Source: a bacterium (GTDB lineage Bacteria > Patescibacteriota > Minisyncoccia > UBA6257 > JAGOQP01). From it: a stretch of 64,000 nt of DNA. The notes under the pieces were generated by a model, which ran no database searches, was not told the DNA's origin, and worked only from the letters and a program-made list of their open reading frames with translations. The translations under genes were made by a program, and so were the position numbers. Positions 1,511 through 21,743 of the stretch are shown here, one piece after another. The stretch covers positions 8,889 through 72,888 of the forward strand of contig JAJXZH010000032.1 of NCBI GenBank assembly GCA_021780155.1, written 5' to 3'. The stretch's first letter is position 1. Each line of letters begins with the position of its first letter.

Positions 1511-1531
1511 ATAAATTTGTTTTTATTTATA

Positions 1532-2260
1532 ATGCCTCTTAACTGCCCAAACATCAAAGAACTCAAAGAAAAGACCAAACAATCTCTGGCCTTGTTAGAA
1601 CAACTCAAAGAAGAGTTCTCTCAAACAGGAAGTGATAAAACAAGACAAGAAATCATCCCACTTCAAAAAGAGGTAGATTCCAATCTGGAAAAGATGAAAG
1701 AGTCCCTTTCTCAATCCATATCCGAAACTCTCAAAGAACAAGGAAATGATACTGTCCCTCCAATCCCCATTAATCCCGAAGGATTTGTTATTGGTGGAGG
1801 TATTATTCTTAAAACCCCAGACATAAAACAACTTCCCATTCTTACAGCTCTCAAAGAAGTTTGTGGAGAGCTTTATGCCCCCTCCGCCACATCCATAAAT
1901 CTCCCCAATCTCAAAGAAATTCATAAATATCTTTATGCCCTCTCCGCCACATCCATAAATCTCCCTAACCTTAAGAAAGTTAATGGAGGTCTTAATGCCT
2001 ACTCCGCCACATCCATAGATCTCCCCAATCTTAAAGAAGTTGATGGAGATCTTGATGCCTACTCCGCCACATCCGTAAATCTCCCTAGCCTTAAGAAAGT
2101 TAATGGAGATCTTTATGTCCTCTCCGCCACATCTATAGATCTTCAATCAATAACGTTAATTAAAGATGATGTCTTTATATCTCAAAAAACATCACCCAAA
2201 GTCGTCAAATATATCCAAGACCTCAAAGAGAGGGGAATAATCAAAGGAGAGATAGCGTAA
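1532..2260 (+). CDS. Repeat protein: N-terminal coiled-coil-like region followed by about five 20-aa LRR-like tandem repeats (consensus LYA.SATSINLPNLK.V.G.)
   Basis: ATG at 1532 is in frame with the track ORF that starts at 1517. A 60-nt DNA period is visible across 1877-2140. Confidence 0.55.
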   Translation: MPLNCPNIKELKEKTKQSLALLEQLKEEFSQTGSDKTRQEIIPLQKEVDSNLEKMKESLSQSISETLKEQGNDTVPPIPINPEGFVIGGGIILKTPDIKQLPILTALKEVCGELYAPSATSINLPNLKEIHKYLYALSATSINLPNLKKVNGGLNAYSATSIDLPNLKEVDGDLDAYSATSVNLPSLKKVNGDLYVLSATSIDLQSITLIKDDVFISQKTSPKVVKYIQDLKERGIIKGEIA

Positions 2261-2359: not shown

Positions 2360-4963
2360 TTATTCAAGGTGCACCTGCTCTCTGAACATTTTAACATAGG
2401 CGGCCAGATAGGGATGATTTTCAAGTTCCGGATCGGATTTTATAATTTCATAAGCGCTGTCTCGGGCAGTCTGGACCAGCTGAGGATTTTGAATGGCTTT
2501 CATTGCCAGGTCGGGTAGTCCAGATTGTTCTTGCCCCAAAAACTGACCCGGACCTCTTAATTTCAAATCAATTTCTGCCAGCTCAAATCCATTTTTGGCG
2601 TTTACCAGCGCCTTCATTCTGTAAGCGGTTGTTTTTGAATTAATATCCGAAAACAAAAAACAATATGATTGATGCTCTCCTCGGCCCACGCGCCCTCTAA
2701 ACTGATACAATTGGGAAAGACCGAAATGTTCGGAACCTTCAATAAGCATTACGGTAGCGTTGGGGATGTCTATGCCGACTTCAATTACTGAAGTGGAAAC
2801 CAGAATATCATATTTTTTATCTTTGAAATCCGTCATTATCTTTTGTTTTTCCGCCGACTTCATTCGTCCGTGCAAAGAAGCGATTTTGAAATTCGGAAAT
2901 ATTTTTTTGGATAATTTTTCCGTTTCTTCTTTAACCGATTTTACCTCCAAATTAAATAACTGGCGGCCAGTCAGGGGAGCTTCCGGATCGGGTGGTTCTA
3001 TTCGCGGACAAATAACAAAAGCTTGTCTCCCGGATTTTATTTGTTGAGTGACAAAATCATAGGCCTTCTGGCGATTAGCTGAAGTCACGGCTTTGGTGAT
3101 AATTGGTTTTCTGTTTTTTGGCAGTTCATTTATCAAGGATAAATCCAAATCTCCAAAGGCGGTTAAGGCGAGAGTGCGGGGTATTGGTGTTGCGCTCATA
3201 CTCAACAGGTGTGGTATCACCAACTCGGATTTACTCTGATTAGACTCGGATTTATTCGGATTATCATAATTTTTGTCGTAAATAATCCTTTGTATTTCTA
3301 GTTTTACATTTCCGAAATTCACCAATAGAGCTAATTTATATTCAGAACCTTTAAGATAATTCCATACTTGTCTTTTTTCAATATTTCCAATAAATGGCAA
3401 TGCTTTCAATTCTAATATTATTTTATTTTCTATTATCAGGTCTGGTTTATACGCGCCAACCTTTTTATCGTTATATTTTATCGTGATGGATTTTTCAGTA
3501 TCGAAATTAATTCTCTTGCTCCGTAGTTCTTCGAGTAGTGCTTTGTGATAAATAACTTCTTTATGACCCGATCCAATTTGATTGTAAACATTAAATAGCG
3601 CTCCTCTTATTTTGTATGTAAGATCTTCGTAAATTAAGTTCGGTTTGGCATCATCCGTTTTTATCCGTGTATTAATCTGTGAATATCCGCGTGTGAGCAA
3701 TGCGCGCTGATTGACTCCGAAACGATGCTGTTCATCAATTACCACCAATGCCGGATTTTTGAATTCAACTCCTTTTTGAATTATAGAGTGAGTTCCTATA
3801 ATTATTTTTATTTTTCCGGATTTGATTTGGGAAAGAAGTTCCTTTTTCGAGATTTCCGTTTCCAGCCCATCTCCATGAAAAGATAATGTTTGGGCCGACG
3901 TTAGTAGCGCTATGCCGTCAGAAAATTCTTCAAAATATTTTTTGAACGTTTCATAGTGCTGGCGGGCAAGGACTTCCGTTGGAGCCATCAAAATTGCTTG
4001 TTTATTATTGTTGGCTACAATTAGCGATGCGATTGCGGCAACGATGGTTTTTCCCGAACCAACATCTCCCTGAAGTAGACGGCTTGTCGGGTGCGTTTTT
4101 TTTAAATCTTCAAGAATTTCATAGAGTGATTTTTTTTGAGCCAGCGTCAATTCAAATGGTATATATGAAAAAAGCTTTTTTATGTATTCCGGAGAATAAT
4201 CGCATGAGTAGGCATCTTGTTTTGAAAGATGCTCCCGCTCGGAAGCGTTTACCAGTTGCAGTAAAAATAAATCTTGAAAAGAAAACCTCCTTTCAGCTTC
4301 TTGAGCTTGTTCTATCGTGTCCGGGTAATGAATTTGAGCAAACGAGTCGGCGAGTGAAGGAAAATTAAATTCTTGAACTACATTTTCCGGCAAAAATTCG
4401 GGACTGTCGGCAAAATCAGGCAATATTTTACTGACAACAAAACGAATCATTTTTGATGTGACCCCTTCGGTTTGGGGATAGACCGGAACCAATCGGCCGG
4501 TGTGGCGAGTTTCCTGAAATTCATCATTAATAATTTCAAACATTGGATTTTGGAATGTAAGATGTTTTCCCTGAAGCATCGGTTTTCCGGCAAAATTAGC
4601 AAACTTTCCTTCTTTTAAAGTGTTAATTAGAAATTTTTGATTAAACCAAACGGCTTTAACCTTTCCGGTTTCATCAGAAATGGTTGCCTCCACTATCCAC
4701 ATTTTTTTGTGGAAAGTTTTATAGATGCCGACTTTTTCTATTTTTCCATAAACTGTCGCTATTTGACCTTCGGCAAGGTCGGATATTTTTGATATTTTTG
4801 AAAAATCCAAATATCTGAAAGGAAAGTAATATAAAACATCTTTAACCGTTTTGAGCTTAAGCTTGGAAAGTTTTTCTGAAATTTTTTGTCCGATGCCTGA
4901 AATTGAAGTTAATGGTGATGAAAAAGAAATCATAAAAAACATTTTACTACTTATTGTCTCCAA
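2360..4963 (-). CDS. recG: ATP-dependent DNA helicase RecG carrying an in-frame ~155-aa insertion (GxxExxY / PD-(D/E)xK-like) between motifs II and III
   Basis: Walker A GDVGSGKT, DEQHRFGV, SATPIPRTL and QLYQFRGRVGRG motifs, plus the N-terminal wedge/OB region. The true start may be the internal Met at 4933. Confidence 0.85.
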   Translation of the reverse strand: METISSKMFFMISFSSPLTSISGIGQKISEKLSKLKLKTVKDVLYYFPFRYLDFSKISKISDLAEGQIATVYGKIEKVGIYKTFHKKMWIVEATISDETGKVKAVWFNQKFLINTLKEGKFANFAGKPMLQGKHLTFQNPMFEIINDEFQETRHTGRLVPVYPQTEGVTSKMIRFVVSKILPDFADSPEFLPENVVQEFNFPSLADSFAQIHYPDTIEQAQEAERRFSFQDLFLLQLVNASEREHLSKQDAYSCDYSPEYIKKLFSYIPFELTLAQKKSLYEILEDLKKTHPTSRLLQGDVGSGKTIVAAIASLIVANNNKQAILMAPTEVLARQHYETFKKYFEEFSDGIALLTSAQTLSFHGDGLETEISKKELLSQIKSGKIKIIIGTHSIIQKGVEFKNPALVVIDEQHRFGVNQRALLTRGYSQINTRIKTDDAKPNLIYEDLTYKIRGALFNVYNQIGSGHKEVIYHKALLEELRSKRINFDTEKSITIKYNDKKVGAYKPDLIIENKIILELKALPFIGNIEKRQVWNYLKGSEYKLALLVNFGNVKLEIQRIIYDKNYDNPNKSESNQSKSELVIPHLLSMSATPIPRTLALTAFGDLDLSLINELPKNRKPIITKAVTSANRQKAYDFVTQQIKSGRQAFVICPRIEPPDPEAPLTGRQLFNLEVKSVKEETEKLSKKIFPNFKIASLHGRMKSAEKQKIMTDFKDKKYDILVSTSVIEVGIDIPNATVMLIEGSEHFGLSQLYQFRGRVGRGEHQSYCFLFSDINSKTTAYRMKALVNAKNGFELAEIDLKLRGPGQFLGQEQSGLPDLAMKAIQNPQLVQTARDSAYEIIKSDPELENHPYLAAYVKMFREQVHLE

Positions 4964-14464: not shown

Positions 14465-15034
14465 ATGGAAATCGATGATGGCTTGGAAGTTTTCGAAGGA
14501 AGCGATTGCCAAGGATCCGATTGTTACACTAAGAGGTGTCCGATCGATGGATTTGTCCAATTCAGCGAAGTGGTTGAATTGGAAAACCAGGAAATTTACA
14601 GAGCGGTTCTTTTGGATGAATCCAAAAAAGAGGTAGCAATCGGATTTATTGAAACGACAAAATTGGAAAACCAGGAAATTTACAGAGCAGTTCTTTTGGA
14701 TGAATCCAAAAAAGAGGTAGCGGTCGGATTTTTCCATCGTTCGGAAATTAAGCCATTTGATGCGGTTTATGTAAAAGTTATGAATGAAAACGAGGGTGGG
14801 TATCTGGTTTATTACAATGCCACATCTCAAAGTTATGGGTTTATGCAGGGAGGCGCCGTCTGGATTCCCAAAAATTTGTTGTCGGTAATGACAACTCGAA
14901 CGATCAGGGGTATTGCTGATGGCAGGATGGTAACTCTCAAGTGCAAATGTGGGGAAGAACTGGTGATGGCCGTTGGCCTACCAAGAACTTTGGCCGCGTG
15001 TCCCAAGTGCAAGTGTGTTGACCATGTTGTTTAA
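14465..15034 (+). CDS. Cys-rich hypothetical protein with an internal ~32-aa tandem duplication and a C-terminal zinc-ribbon-like CKC...CPKCKC motif
   Basis: RBS aaggaga sits 6 nt before the ATG at 14465. The 96-bp segments at 14576 and 14672 are about 97% identical. Confidence 0.5.
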   Translation: MEIDDGLEVFEGSDCQGSDCYTKRCPIDGFVQFSEVVELENQEIYRAVLLDESKKEVAIGFIETTKLENQEIYRAVLLDESKKEVAVGFFHRSEIKPFDAVYVKVMNENEGGYLVYYNATSQSYGFMQGGAVWIPKNLLSVMTTRTIRGIADGRMVTLKCKCGEELVMAVGLPRTLAACPKCKCVDHVV

Positions 15035-19790: not shown

Positions 19791-19844
19791 AATAGAACCT
19801 AAATAAACACGGATTTTATACTCAGATTAACGCAGATTAAAATC

Positions 19845-19868
19845 AAAAAAGACCGGAGGGTCTTTTTT
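19845..19868. terminator. Bidirectional terminator
   Basis: aaaaaagaccggagggtctttttt, between convergent genes. Confidence 0.6.
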
Positions 19869-21081: not shown

Positions 21082-21160
21082 CGGATTTTTGTTGGCGAAA
21101 ACGGGAAGGATTTGAATCTTTGATGTTGTTGTTAGTGTAACGATTTTTTCCCGCACAAAG

Positions 21161-21247
21161 CGGAAGGTGGAGGATTCGAACCTCCGATCCCGTTTCCGGG
21201 ATACCGCATTTCAAGTGCGGCGCATTAGACCACTCTGCCAACCTTCC
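21161..21247 (-). tRNA. tRNA-Ser(UGA)
   Basis: 87 nt. Anticodon loop CTTGAAA, long variable arm CCCGGAAACGGG, T-loop TTCGAAT, discriminator G. Confidence 0.85.
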
Positions 21248-21295: not shown

Positions 21296-21670
21296 GGGAA
21301 AAATACCAAAAATCCAAAACCAATAAATGGTTTTGAATTTTGTGGACCGTAGCGGAATCTCACATCGTCCCGATAAATCGGGACTCTCTAAAACCATTCG
21401 GTTTTAGTATTTCCTCTACGGGGTATTTACAAAATACCCCGACCCCCAAAGATTCTAATCCACAAATATCCAAAAATCCAAAACCAATAAATGGTTTTGA
21501 ATTTTGTGGACCGTAGCGGAATCTCACATCGTCCCGATAAATCGGGACTCTCTAAAACCATTCGGTTTTAGTATTTCCTCTACGGGGTATTTACGAAATA
21601 CCCCGACCCCCAAAGATTCTAATCCGCAAATATCCAAAAATCCAAAACCAATAAATGGTTTTGAATTTTG
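21296..21670. repeat. Tandem 163-165-bp repeat (2 full copies plus a partial) directly downstream of tRNA-Ala(UGC); each copy contains the tRNA 3'-terminal 15-mer plus its trailer
   Basis: The string tgtggaccgtagcgga recurs at 21341, 21504 and 21669; the last instance is the real tRNA. Copies are over 95% identical. Confidence 0.8.
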
Positions 21671-21743
21671 TGGACCGTAGCGGATTCGAACCGCTGACCT
21701 CCTCGTTGCAAACGAGGCGCTCTACCAACTAAGCTAACGGCCC
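21671..21743 (-). tRNA. tRNA-Ala(UGC)
   Basis: Anticodon loop TTTGCAA, G3:U70, discriminator A, T-loop TTCGAAT. CCA is not encoded. Confidence 0.8.

Follow-up and report, generated by a model that had tools for sequence, protein, structure and literature searches.

A predicted GxxExxY-family nuclease between inverted repeat arms, in frame within RecG of a CPR bacterium: a probable translated-through mobile element

The recG locus and its in-frame insert

The window, meaning the whole 64,000-nt stretch of DNA analysed here, contains a recG gene into which a 156-codon element has been inserted without interruption of the reading frame (Table 1). The gene product is a RecG branch-migration helicase, as indicated by the RecG equivalog HMM NF008168 (787.9 bits, cutoff 718), by NF008165 (734.8, cutoff 711), by profile matches to RecG_wedge, DEAD, Helicase_C and RecG_dom3_C, the C-terminal domain, and by the presence of SF2 motifs I-VI. 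The corresponding database protein (P0001) has 860 aa, compared with 867 aa for the ORF read from its TTG. The structure of T. maritima RecG (1GM5) aligns with the product (E = 7.8e-129) over aa 14-426 and again over aa 586-844, and in its chain only 4 residues separate the two blocks. On sequence grounds, the host gene is intact and under selection, with a dN/dS of 0.043-0.044 in its host parts when compared with the insert-bearing relative L002.

An earlier note on this DNA had proposed an in-frame insertion between helicase motifs II and III, placing it at 3224-3688 (aa 426-580), DEQHRFGV at aa 410-417 and SATPIPRT at aa 589-596. The insertion is confirmed and is stop-free through the host frame; motif II lies exactly where it had been placed, and the layout proposed around motif III also stands, its position being shifted by one residue, to aa 590-597. 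The junctions were set by DNA alignment with insert-less L001 and insert-bearing L002, with an accuracy of about 2 codons. They read LTR/GYSQ and SKSE/LVIPH, and their residues vary among 52 insert-bearing RecGs.

Table 1. Coordinates of the recG element, its host gene and a related repeat array within the window
Feature	Position	Strand	Description
recG ORF, host of the element	2360..4963	minus	867 aa from TTG start; wedge domain, motifs I-VI intact
Helicase motif II, DEQHRFGV (aa 410-417)	3713..3736	minus	residue numbering on the recG ORF
Inserted element, 468 nt = 156 codons (R425/G426 to E580)	3224..3691	minus	ORF continuous with recG on both sides
5' arm	3653..3691	minus	CGGAT / CAGAT units at ~10-nt spacing, CGCGGATATTCACAGATTAATACACGGATAAAAACGGAT; translated RGYSQINTRIKTD
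GxxExxY motif: G466, E469, Y472	3548..3568	minus	conserved in embedded copies
GxxExxY / PDDEXK_3 nuclease core, predicted (aa 447-561)	3281..3625	minus	profile matches; AF2 core pLDDT above 90; dN/dS 0.046 vs L002
PD-(D/E)xK catalytic block, predicted	3404..3442	minus	D508 (3440-3442), E518-L-K520 (3404-3412)
3' arm	3224..3263	minus	ATCCG units, AATCCGAATAAATCCGAGTCTAATCAGAGTAAATCCGAG, inverted relative to the 5' arm; translated NPNKSESNQSKSE
Helicase motif III, SATPIPRT (aa 590-597)	3173..3196	minus	residue numbering on the recG ORF
Orphan array of the same repeat units	19806..19840	plus	AACACGGATTTTATACTCAGATTAACGCAGATTAAAATC; intergenic, not part of the recG element

A nuclease domain of the GxxExxY family

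Two profiles match the insert over essentially their full length: TIGR04256 over 1-116/116 (E = 1.5e-33, 115.6 bits, cutoff 35) and PF13366 PDDEXK_3 over 2-117/117 (E = 3.5e-33, 114.9 bits, cutoff 22). These matches bear out the GxxExxY assignment that the earlier note had made, and the residues it had singled out, G466-xx-E469-xx-Y472, D508 and E518-L-K520, were all found at the positions given. Rather than forming a stand-alone protein of ~125 aa, the domain is embedded at aa 447-561 of 867; judged by its profiles, the insert belongs to the GxxExxY family as a domain and lacks the usual form of a family protein. Both E469 and Y472 are invariant among embedded copies (66/66 in RecG, 31/31 in LepA), and G466 is kept in 65/66 and 30/31, respectively. 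All 107 embedded copies, which were sampled by homology to an intact copy, have the catalytic E, D and ExK unchanged, and the catalytic E, D, E and K are also invariant in 105 free copies, bar one K-to-R change. This conservation and the dN/dS of 0.046 against L002 show an intact active site and strong purifying selection on the core of the predicted nuclease.

The AF2 model of the domain (pLDDT 86.7 overall, above 90 in the core) has a helix-helix-four strands-helix-two strands topology, and the modelled domain adopts a restriction-endonuclease-like alpha/beta fold. Its Foldseek matches in the PDB are PD-(D/E)xK nucleases, all weak (best E = 1.4e-3), the best being Cas4 SSO0001, lambda exonuclease, RecE, Hjc and EndA; single-sequence and profile searches found no solved structure for the domain. 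The linkers around the insert have a pLDDT below 50, as do aa 426-433 within the 5' arm, and the model shows nothing unusual in the strands that bear motifs II and III. The looping out of the insert that had been anticipated agrees with this model, in which low-confidence linkers run from the motif II helix to the motif III strand. PADLOC and PHROG searches gave no match to the insert, and its membership of a defence system or among phage proteins was rejected on that basis. A tblastn search revealed no second nuclease copy within the 64-kb window.

Inverted repeat arms

The two ends of the element are imperfect inverted arrays with a period of ~10 bp, built from a CGGAT-type unit here and from ACGCGGAT in relatives; the outermost units are CGCGGAT and ATCCGAG. 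The pattern CGGATN5CGGAT occurs twice in 64 kb (expected 0.09), both times at the ends of the insert and in inverted orientation. TRF describes the 3' arm as 3.9 copies of period 10 at 3223-3262, and the autocorrelation of the arms peaks at lags 10 and 21, with a consensus unit ACGC(G/A/T)GA(T/C). Both the MFE and the centroid fold pair the 3' arm with the 5' arm.

Pairing between the arms is a general property of the family. Across 80 loci, pairing between the 90-nt stretches on either side of the core is better than for shuffled sequences in 54/54 embedded and 25/26 free-standing copies, and in 48/54 embedded copies cognate arms pair better than non-cognate ones (-53.5 kcal/mol for cognate, -40.4 for non-cognate and -33.5 for shuffled arms). 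The arms amount to terminal inverted repeats in the plain sense, with some 70-80% of positions matched along 40-80 nt. Where a second GxxExxY subfamily occupies this recG site, its arms are made from a different unit, with pairing kept. Synonymous divergence from L002 is 0.115 in the 3' arm, compared with 0.58-0.72 in the host parts and the nuclease core, and 0.56 in the 5' linker (18 codons); by this measure, synonymous sites of the 3' arm are constrained at the nucleotide level.

The window holds one full copy of the element and one orphan arm, the latter possibly a solo-arm remnant. No target-site duplication was seen at element ends defined to a few nt in recG, lepA and free-standing copies, and the signature of classical DDE-type transposition is therefore absent.

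Absence of splicing signatures

Pfam and NCBIfam searches detected no Hint or intein match in the recG product. An intein was rejected given this lack of a Hint domain and of a Cys/Ser/Thr N-terminal or a His-Asn + Cys/Ser/Thr C-terminal junction, in agreement with the missing junction features described previously. Rfam covariance models run against positions 2900-4000 of the window gave no match at E <= 1; a group I or group II intron, or another known structured RNA, was rejected on this result and on the continuity of the frame with the host. Selection for a stem in the sense RNA is likewise not supported: mismatches between arms comprise 94 sense G:U-compatible changes, 160 antisense-compatible ones and 444 transversions, showing no G:U enrichment, and the fold of the whole insert is no more stable than that of shuffled sequences (z = 0.53).

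Presence and absence among RecG relatives

Among the 120 best RecG homologues, 52 carry the element at this site, or about 43% of the closest CPR RecGs. The 68 insert-less proteins have 20-43 residues between motifs II and III, mostly 20-21, as opposed to 172 in the RecG described here. The presence/absence polymorphism that the earlier note had suggested looking for is real among the closest RecGs. The same architecture recurs at 79-100% identity in P0001-P0004, L002 and L003, and about 50 further, more distant RecGs share it; an assembly chimera was rejected, since the recurrence spans independent NCBI, ENA and JGI assemblies. Some of these whole RecG proteins are named 'GxxExxY protein' in databases.

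The insert-bearing clade is nested among insert-less RecGs. Within it, P0005, whose host parts are 91% identical, is the sister of insert-bearing P0003, yet its site is empty and pristine; the loops of P0005 and P0006 are both ancestral-looking, and where the nested clade has an empty site, its ancestral length and sequence are preserved (SEKEMI vs SEKEIL). The occupied site is identical even in RecGs that share only 50-60% identity. Other lineages use a second insertion site, in the RecG wedge domain, and nuclease-less scars are found in the RecGs P0089/L084 and P0070.

The DNA around the insertion carries a further signal. Far from it, three-taxon informative sites grouping L002 with L001 number 165 vs 155, and within 300 nt of it 34 vs 115 (Fisher p = 2.5e-9); this single three-sequence comparison shows the host DNA flanking the site to be locally mosaic. 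The tract could just as well mean that L001 lost the insert by recombining with an empty allele from a foreign source. Same-site occupancy, empty close relatives and mosaic flanks, the last from that one comparison, are the marks of a homing element. In the closest clade, the core is 79% and 76% identical, vs 90% and 83% for the host parts. Host and insert identities are uncorrelated (Spearman 0.02), a value kept as weak evidence because most pairs fall in a narrow 50-60% band, where it could reflect saturation. RecG-borne and LepA-borne nucleases interleave in an NJ tree of 121 columns, which is awkward for strict site-specific homing lineages; the tree is weak and does not settle whether the nucleases of RecG and LepA form separate lineages.

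Other host proteins and nuclease-less derivatives

In-frame copies of this element are also present in LepA, SecA, LeuRS, YdjC, GT4, Wzy_C and riboflavin kinase, and further in GatB, transketolase, pilin-like proteins and glycosyltransferases, with 43 host Pfam families among 62 long representatives. In embedded loci, the ORF runs into the host protein on both sides, apart from a few that are cut off by the end of a contig; RibF-type copies are C-terminal fusions. Arm-only hairpins of ~80 nt without a nuclease are present in frame in LepA (L008, L009, L013, L020, L025, L028, L045 and L047) and in a Wzy_C protein (L036). These mini-elements fold at -35 to -54 kcal/mol and, with the RecG scars, constitute non-autonomous derivatives that share the ends of the element. 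The GxxExxY (PDDEXK_3) family itself is large, the representative library containing 8,789 clusters at E <= 1e-3, and similar inverted arrays with a 10-bp period lie on both sides of its free-standing genes in Omnitrophota, Verrucomicrobiota, Bacteroidota and CPR. The inverted arrays, the nuclease-less derivatives and the breadth of hosts did not figure in the earlier note.

Interpretation and alternative explanations

The insert is probably a non-splicing, translated-through selfish mobile element lodged in frame in RecG, and not a functional fusion specific to RecG. The earlier note had offered a nuclease module fused into the helicase or a domesticated mobile nuclease; with at least 43 unrelated host families, the mobile nuclease is the better fit of the two, and the evidence gives no support to its being 'domesticated'.

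According to the proposed mechanism, the element would have landed in frame in a 4-5-residue turn between motifs II and III. Its 5' array, its ~120-aa GxxExxY PD-(D/E)xK nuclease and its inverted 3' array, all stop-free in the host frame, would be transcribed and translated as part of RecG. The arms would become two disordered hydrophilic linkers and the nuclease would fold independently, as a domain tethered to RecA-like domain 1, and RecG would therefore keep working; RNA or protein splicing would be neither needed nor likely. Inside a conserved gene, the element may be protected from loss because only precise deletion would be tolerated. The nuclease would be the element's own mobility enzyme, most likely binding the helically phased arrays or the hairpin or cruciform that they can form. 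The breaks it makes would be repaired by recombination, and in a process resembling homing, empty alleles would thereby receive a copy of the element along with some of the host DNA beside it. Rare ectopic insertions would survive only in frame and in permissive surface loops, and the ~80-nt arm-only hairpins may behave as non-autonomous copies. How the element moves, including its predicted cleavage and its target recognition, is thus a part of the model that we infer. The homing model by itself does not explain the need for repeat arms, and we know of no strand-transfer activity for a 120-aa PD-(D/E)xK nuclease. Purely selfish homing genes often decay, and invariant catalytic residues are unusual for such genes, although the copies compared here were chosen by their homology to an intact one.

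Vertical inheritance offers a different account, in which one or a few gains took place early in Paceibacteria-like CPR and the insertion, now immobile, was passed on vertically and repeatedly lost, its repeats being slippage-prone low-complexity linkers. The shared site in distantly related RecGs, the lack of a target-site duplication and of a second copy in the window, and a core whose divergence in the closest clade approximately tracks that of the host would all suit this history. It is nevertheless unlikely: the ancestral length and sequence seen at empty sites would not return after imprecise loss, and the locally mosaic flanks, the strong purifying selection with an invariant active site, and the many unrelated hosts and additional sites all stand against it. 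Arms that match their own partner better than those of other elements speak against it too, as do the 10-bp phasing and the synonymous constraint of the 3' arm, neither of which is required of linkers. We regard as somewhat less probable again a functional (domesticated) helicase-nuclease fusion, in which the PD-(D/E)xK domain lets RecG cut the branched DNA that it remodels, like Hef or AddAB-type helicase-nucleases, and perhaps offsets resolvases missing from reduced CPR genomes. Such a role would be compatible with invariant catalytic residues, a dN/dS as low as that of the host, occupancy of the same site in a large minority of the closest CPR RecGs, structural neighbours that include Hjc, RecB-family and Cas4-family nucleases, and a domain held on flexible tethers beside the motor domain. 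However, the same element and linkers occur in LepA, SecA, LeuRS and other proteins where a role for a DNA nuclease is not obvious, and sister RecGs with 91% identical host parts do without it and have pristine loops. Arm-only derivatives, the use of a second RecG site by other lineages, and nucleotide-constrained arms that also surround free-standing genes in other phyla weigh in the same direction.

Removal of the insert after transcription or translation, either as an unconventional intein or as an IVS-like stem cut by an RNase III- or EndA-like enzyme and religated, is the least probable of these explanations, and we consider it very improbable. At the level of sense RNA, the arms are able to pair into a long stem in both predicted folds, the mini-elements fold stably, tRNA-splicing endonucleases are among the weak fold matches, and 23S rRNA IVS elements share the layout of an ORF between inverted repeats and are excised by RNase III (PMC4990558). 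Against this, every embedded copy keeps the frame, has stop-free arms and a length that is a multiple of three, all needless if the insert were spliced, and the Hint domain, the Cys/Ser/Thr or His-Asn junction residues and any Rfam intron match are lacking. Neither the distribution of arm mismatches nor the comparison of the whole-insert fold with shuffles points to a selected RNA stem.

A wider proposal, which we hold tentatively and with slightly less than even confidence, is that GxxExxY proteins may be the mobility nucleases of widespread, undescribed palindrome-armed elements, one CPR lineage of which would live like an intein, in frame and unspliced, in RecG, LepA, SecA, aminoacyl-tRNA synthetases and dozens of further proteins, and spawn translated hairpin mini-elements. 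No description of this element was found in the open-access literature on GxxExxY, PDDEXK_3 and CPR in-frame or RecG insertions.

Significance

If this interpretation is correct, a large protein family of unknown function acquires a role as an element-borne mobility nuclease. It would also define a third lifestyle for nuclease-bearing selfish elements in essential genes, in which the element is translated through as a tethered domain, in contrast to introns, which are spliced at the RNA level, and inteins, which are spliced at the protein level. The element would further provide a candidate autonomous partner for RPE-type in-frame palindromic repeats, whose origin and mobility are still unexplained, and would partly explain why housekeeping proteins in CPR bacteria are so unusually long and rich in inserts. 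From a practical standpoint, such inserts cause mis-annotation, as when RecG is named after the GxxExxY family, and their sites map naturally permissive loops in RecG, LepA, SecA and LeuRS that could serve for domain-insertion engineering.

Comparison with known systems

Inteins with homing endonucleases are selfish in-frame insertions at conserved sites in essential proteins, often helicases and other ATPases. The recG element is like them in its patchy occurrence among close relatives, its pristine empty sites and its signs of co-converted flanks, and its relatives lie in frame in LepA, SecA, LeuRS and dozens more proteins; it therefore resembles an intein without the splicing signature. Unlike inteins, it has neither a Hint domain nor junction nucleophiles and therefore apparently remains part of mature RecG. 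The nuclease that it carries is of the PD-(D/E)xK type, unlike the LAGLIDADG or HNH enzymes of inteins, and it has inverted arms and arm-only derivatives. In REP/RAYT (REPIN) systems, too, short palindromic repeats in inverted orientation surround a mobility gene, and non-autonomous copies of the repeats are numerous; the RAYTs belong to the HUH tyrosine transposases and are extragenic. I-Ssp6803I, an intron-encoded PD-(D/E)xK homing endonuclease, illustrates that such enzymes can home. Neither of these is known to be translated within a host protein, whereas the recG element is predicted to be translated as part of its host.

Free-standing GxxExxY proteins (TIGR04256; PF13366 PDDEXK_3) are listed as being of unknown function (PMC3424549). 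The recG domain shares with them the full-length profile, the GxxExxY motif, the D...ExK residues and the inverted flanks with a 10-bp period, and differs from these ~125-aa proteins in being embedded in a helicase, with its arms predicted to be translated as linkers. The 23S rRNA IVS of Coxiella (S23p ORF) is a small ORF between inverted repeats that is excised from the transcript by RNase III (PMC4990558). The recG element is similarly a small ORF between inverted repeats, and both lodge as selfish elements within an essential gene; the IVS host is an rRNA and its ORF encodes a four-helix-bundle protein, whereas the recG element has a protein-coding host, a preserved frame and a predicted nuclease.

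Rickettsia palindromic elements (RPEs) are palindromic repeats found in frame in unrelated housekeeping genes, where they are translated and compatible with the fold of the host, and no nuclease or other enzyme is reported for them in a review (PMC10969869). In-frame MITEs are also reported from Coxiella (PMC5896051). The ~80-nt arm-only hairpins in LepA and Wzy_C are like RPEs, in behaviour only; unlike RPEs, the present elements have an autonomous-looking version with a conserved nuclease between the arms, and their hosts are CPR bacteria. The ShiLan domain, a homing insertion carried by a phage DNA methylase, does not splice and conceals an HNH endonuclease (PMC11855218). Both insertions are in frame and stop-free, show a homing-like distribution without intein or intron features, and are predicted to loop out of the host protein. 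The ShiLan HNH enzyme is encoded in a different frame, whereas the recG element carries its predicted PD-(D/E)xK nuclease in the frame of the host and is bounded by repeats.

The nuclease domain inside RecG

Curated equivalog models identify the window protein as RecG (NF008168, 787.9 bits; cutoff 718), and a profile search recovers its wedge, DEAD, Helicase_C and RecG C-terminal domains. All RecG models match it as two blocks that skip aa ~427-580, and the solved structure of T. maritima RecG (1GM5) covers aa 14-426 and 586-844, leaving just four residues of its own chain between the two blocks. This split and this four-residue gap indicate that the extra 155 aa are real and far beyond the normal range, confirming the in-frame insertion that an earlier note had read from the DNA. 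Its coordinates, 3224-3688, correspond to aa 426-580, and G466, E469, Y472, D508 and E518-L-K520 all lie where they had been placed; of the flanking helicase motifs, DEQHRFGV stood at its reported position and SATPIPRT was one residue off.

On its own, the insert matches NCBIfam TIGR04256 'GxxExxY protein' over 1-116 of 116 positions (E = 7.5e-35) and Pfam PF13366 PDDEXK_3 over 2-117 of 117 (E = 1.6e-34). These full-length matches support its interpretation as a nuclease-family module, which the repeat arms, nuclease-less derivatives and wide host range described below extend. By its profiles, the insert is a GxxExxY/PDDEXK_3 member at the domain level, not a typical stand-alone protein of the family, and a survey of PD-(D/E)xK nucleases lists PF13366 with function unknown (PMC3424549). 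No solved structure is detectable for it by sequence. An AF2 model built from 25 homologues has pLDDT above 90 at residues ~21-140 and low confidence over the 20 N-terminal and 15 C-terminal residues. Its best PDB matches, all weak (E >= 1.4e-3), are all PD-(D/E)xK nucleases, namely Cas4 SSO0001, lambda exonuclease, RecE, TT1808, Hjc and tRNA-splicing endonuclease. A model of the whole protein shows normally folded RecG domains with the nuclease as a separate domain; pLDDT is below 50 at aa 426-433 and 575-580, the two predicted flexible tethers that join it to the helix following motif II and to the motif III strand.

None of the embedded copies examined varies at E469, D508, E518 or K520 (66/66 RecG-borne, 31/31 LepA-borne and 10/10 others). 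Purifying selection is equally strong on both partners, with dN/dS of 0.046 in the nuclease core and 0.043-0.044 in the matching RecG parts. Together, the invariant catalytic residues and the equal, low dN/dS suggest that the nuclease has been kept active and the host gene functional.

Coordinates of the recG element, of nuclease-less derivatives at other loci (L-numbers) and of tandem repeats in the window
Feature	Position	Strand	Remarks
recG ORF	2360-4963	minus	867 aa
Motif II, DEQHRFGV	aa 410-417 of window RecG		
Motif III, SATPIPRT	aa 590-597 of window RecG		
5' arm of recG element			CGCGGATATTCACAGATTAATACACGGATAAAAACGGAT
3' arm of recG element			AATCCGAATAAATCCGAGTCTAATCAGAGTAAATCCGAG
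CGGATN5CGGAT, copy 1	3653-3667	minus	one insert end
CGGATN5CGGAT, copy 2	3247-3261	plus	other insert end, opposite orientation
Mini-elements in LepA (after KVGDTIT, after IPPP; other loops than full element) and Wzy_C	L008 2240-2321; L009 4078-4159; L013 4043-4129; L020 4145-4228; L025 3658-3741; L028 2136-2217; L045 3869-3940; L036 1880-1960		
60-nt (20-aa) tandem repeat	1853-2142		4.8 copies; in 247-aa ORF 1517-2260 (+); encodes ...SATSINLPNLKE(V/I)..., a leucine-rich-repeat-like array
84-nt tandem repeat	14577-14731		1.8 copies, 95% identical
164-nt tandem repeat	21301-21684		2.3 copies, 98% identical; between tRNA-Ser(tga) 21160-21247 and tRNA-Ala(tgc) 21670-21743

Inverted repeat arms

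As DNA, both linkers are inverted arrays of short units at ~10-nt spacing, and these units delimit the element at window 3224-3691. CGGATN5CGGAT is present in exactly two copies across the 64 kb, against 0.09 expected, and TRF, as an independent check, reports the 3' arm as a repeat of period 10. When the window is compared with L002, an insert-bearing recG orthologue, pS in the 3' arm is 0.115; the 5' linker has 0.56, and the host parts and nuclease core have 0.58-0.72. The low 3'-arm value, from only 18 codons, points to nucleotide-level constraint. Elsewhere in the window, an intergenic array at 19806-19840 (+) consists of units of the 5' arm (AACACGGATTTTATACTCAGATTAACGCAGATTAAAATC), and a terminator-like hairpin (19846-19868) follows closely. 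The array has no visible inverted partner between 19700 and 20500 and could be what is left of a single arm.

Across 80 loci, the 90-nt flanks of the core pair far more stably with each other than with shuffled partners in 54/54 embedded and 25/26 free-standing copies. Cognate arms also pair more stably than arms of different elements in 48/54 embedded copies (means: cognate -53.5, non-cognate -40.4, shuffled -33.5 kcal/mol). Arm autocorrelation peaks at lags 10 and 21, with the consensus unit ACGC(G/A/T)GA(T/C); such spacing, close to one turn of the helix, is what phased protein-binding sites should show. Mismatches between arms comprise 94 sense-strand G:U, 160 antisense-compatible pairs and 444 transversions, with no sense G:U enrichment, and shuffled sequences fold as well as the whole insert does (z = 0.53). 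Both results favour arms that would act at the DNA level rather than as a selected mRNA stem.

Presence and absence among RecG proteins

The 120 best RecG homologues all come from Paceibacteria/Wolfebacteria-like CPR bacteria. The presence/absence polymorphism that the earlier note had proposed looking for is found among them: in 52, motifs II and III are 161-233 aa apart, the extra length always falling at the same site, and in the other 68 they are 20-43 aa apart. In the window's own clade, nested in a large insert-less group, P0001 (the window RecG) to P0004 carry the insert and P0005 and P0006 lack it; P0005, with 91% identical host parts, is the sister of insert-bearing P0003. Empty loops retain the ancestral length and sequence (SEKEMI in P0006, SEKEIL in insert-less P0007) and look like never-occupied or cleanly converted sites, not deletion scars.

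At the DNA level, one triplet was compared, consisting of the window and L002, both with the insert, and L001, an orthologue without it. Far from the insert, 165 informative sites group L002 with L001 and 155 show one of the other two patterns; less than 300 nt away, the counts are 34 and 115 (Fisher p = 2.5e-9). Identity between L002 and L001 drops from about 0.88 to 0.69-0.75 beside the insertion site. Such a local mosaic, in this one triplet, is the pattern that flank co-conversion in a recombinational gain or loss would leave.

Several RecGs scored as insert-less carry arm-only remnants, such as the four forward units and single reverse unit of P0089/L084. The recG site is also used by a second, divergent GxxExxY subfamily, whose arms consist of a different unit (TGCGAAT/CTCGAAT) and still pair; at L083, an RVT_1 reverse-transcriptase gene (3066-3562, -) lies directly downstream of such a RecG. 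In P0036, with 233 aa between the motifs, both arms are symmetrically expanded to about five units each (...TQINAD... repeated on the N side, ...LRESAS... on the C side), and arms appear to grow or shrink together. P0039 and P0051 have normal motif II-III spacing and carry the element, with arms TQTEAD... / ...ESVSS, in a wedge-domain loop just before KHTGRLVPVYPET, corresponding to the low-confidence loop aa 150-164 of the window RecG.

Other hosts and derivatives

The closest relatives of the insert include GxxExxY domains inside LepA and C-terminal on riboflavin kinase, with the same linker peptides. A scan of one genome per GTDB species, with each match extended stop-to-stop, places the domain in a long ORF at about 58/80 loci, nearly all CPR. 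These hosts are mostly RecG and LepA, with SecA (before the C-terminal zinc motif), LeuRS, a GT4 glycosyltransferase, a Wzy_C membrane protein and YdjC. Free-standing copies of 125-150 aa occur in Prevotella, Verrucomicrobiota, Omnitrophota and others. In a library of 1.84 billion representatives the family comprises 8,789 clusters at E <= 1e-3. Long proteins with an internal domain make up most of the top ~60 matches, and 43 host Pfam families occur among 62 long top-ranked matches, including GT1/GT4, RecG, LepA, transketolase, GatB, GT2 and pilin-like. Such fusions are already in databases, where a whole RecG is sometimes named 'GxxExxY protein'.

Nuclease-less derivatives are in-frame hairpins of ~80 nt, with four forward and four reverse ACGCGGA-type units and folding energies of -35 to -54 kcal/mol (table). 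The LepA fragment P0123 contains the element's C-terminal junction twice, each time with host sequence (...QRNSAQVEGVILNLID...SQRNSAQIEDYVLNLIDTPGH), which points to a local duplication at the insertion site or to a footprint left there by repair. Two tandem GxxExxY domains form the free-standing L082, P0177, P0182, P0205 and many matches of ~260-270 aa; by eye, the second domain of P0205 apparently lacks the ExK motif.

Proposed origin and mobility of the insert

The best-supported reading makes the insert a mobile selfish element with palindromic arms and a nuclease; it would be translated along with its host, not spliced out. Its nuclease would drive mobility, with the arms as its binding substrate or as a structure-specific one. 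Spread would proceed mainly by recombinational copying into empty alleles, ectopic insertion being rare, and the fusion protein would be a working RecG. Three points count against this mechanism and are real: RecG and LepA nucleases are interleaved in a tree that is itself weak, no target-site duplication was seen at the elements examined, and simple homing has no obvious need for arms.

A domesticated nuclease serving RecG specifically is unlikely; one with such a role would not be expected in hosts as varied as the 43 Pfam families. An old, immobile insertion that has since undergone losses only has a small chance of being correct. Removal as a spliced intervening sequence is highly improbable, as the insert has no Hint match and no junction nucleophiles, which rejects an intein, and its region matches no Rfam family, which speaks against a known structured RNA or intron.

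Comparison with known systems

No description of this element was found in the open-access literature on this family, on CPR in-frame insertions or on RecG insertions. The element would belong with in-frame selfish elements. It resembles an intein-borne homing endonuclease in lying in frame at conserved sites of essential proteins with a patchy distribution, but, unlike inteins, the recG element fails every defining intein feature. Rickettsia palindromic elements insert in frame in many genes (PMC10969869), and the arm-only derivatives behave like them. In 23S rRNA IVS elements, too, an ORF sits between inverted repeats (PMC4990558). Among published cases, the closest to an in-frame homing insertion that does not splice is the ShiLan domain, which interrupts a phage methylase and carries its HNH out of frame (PMC11855218).
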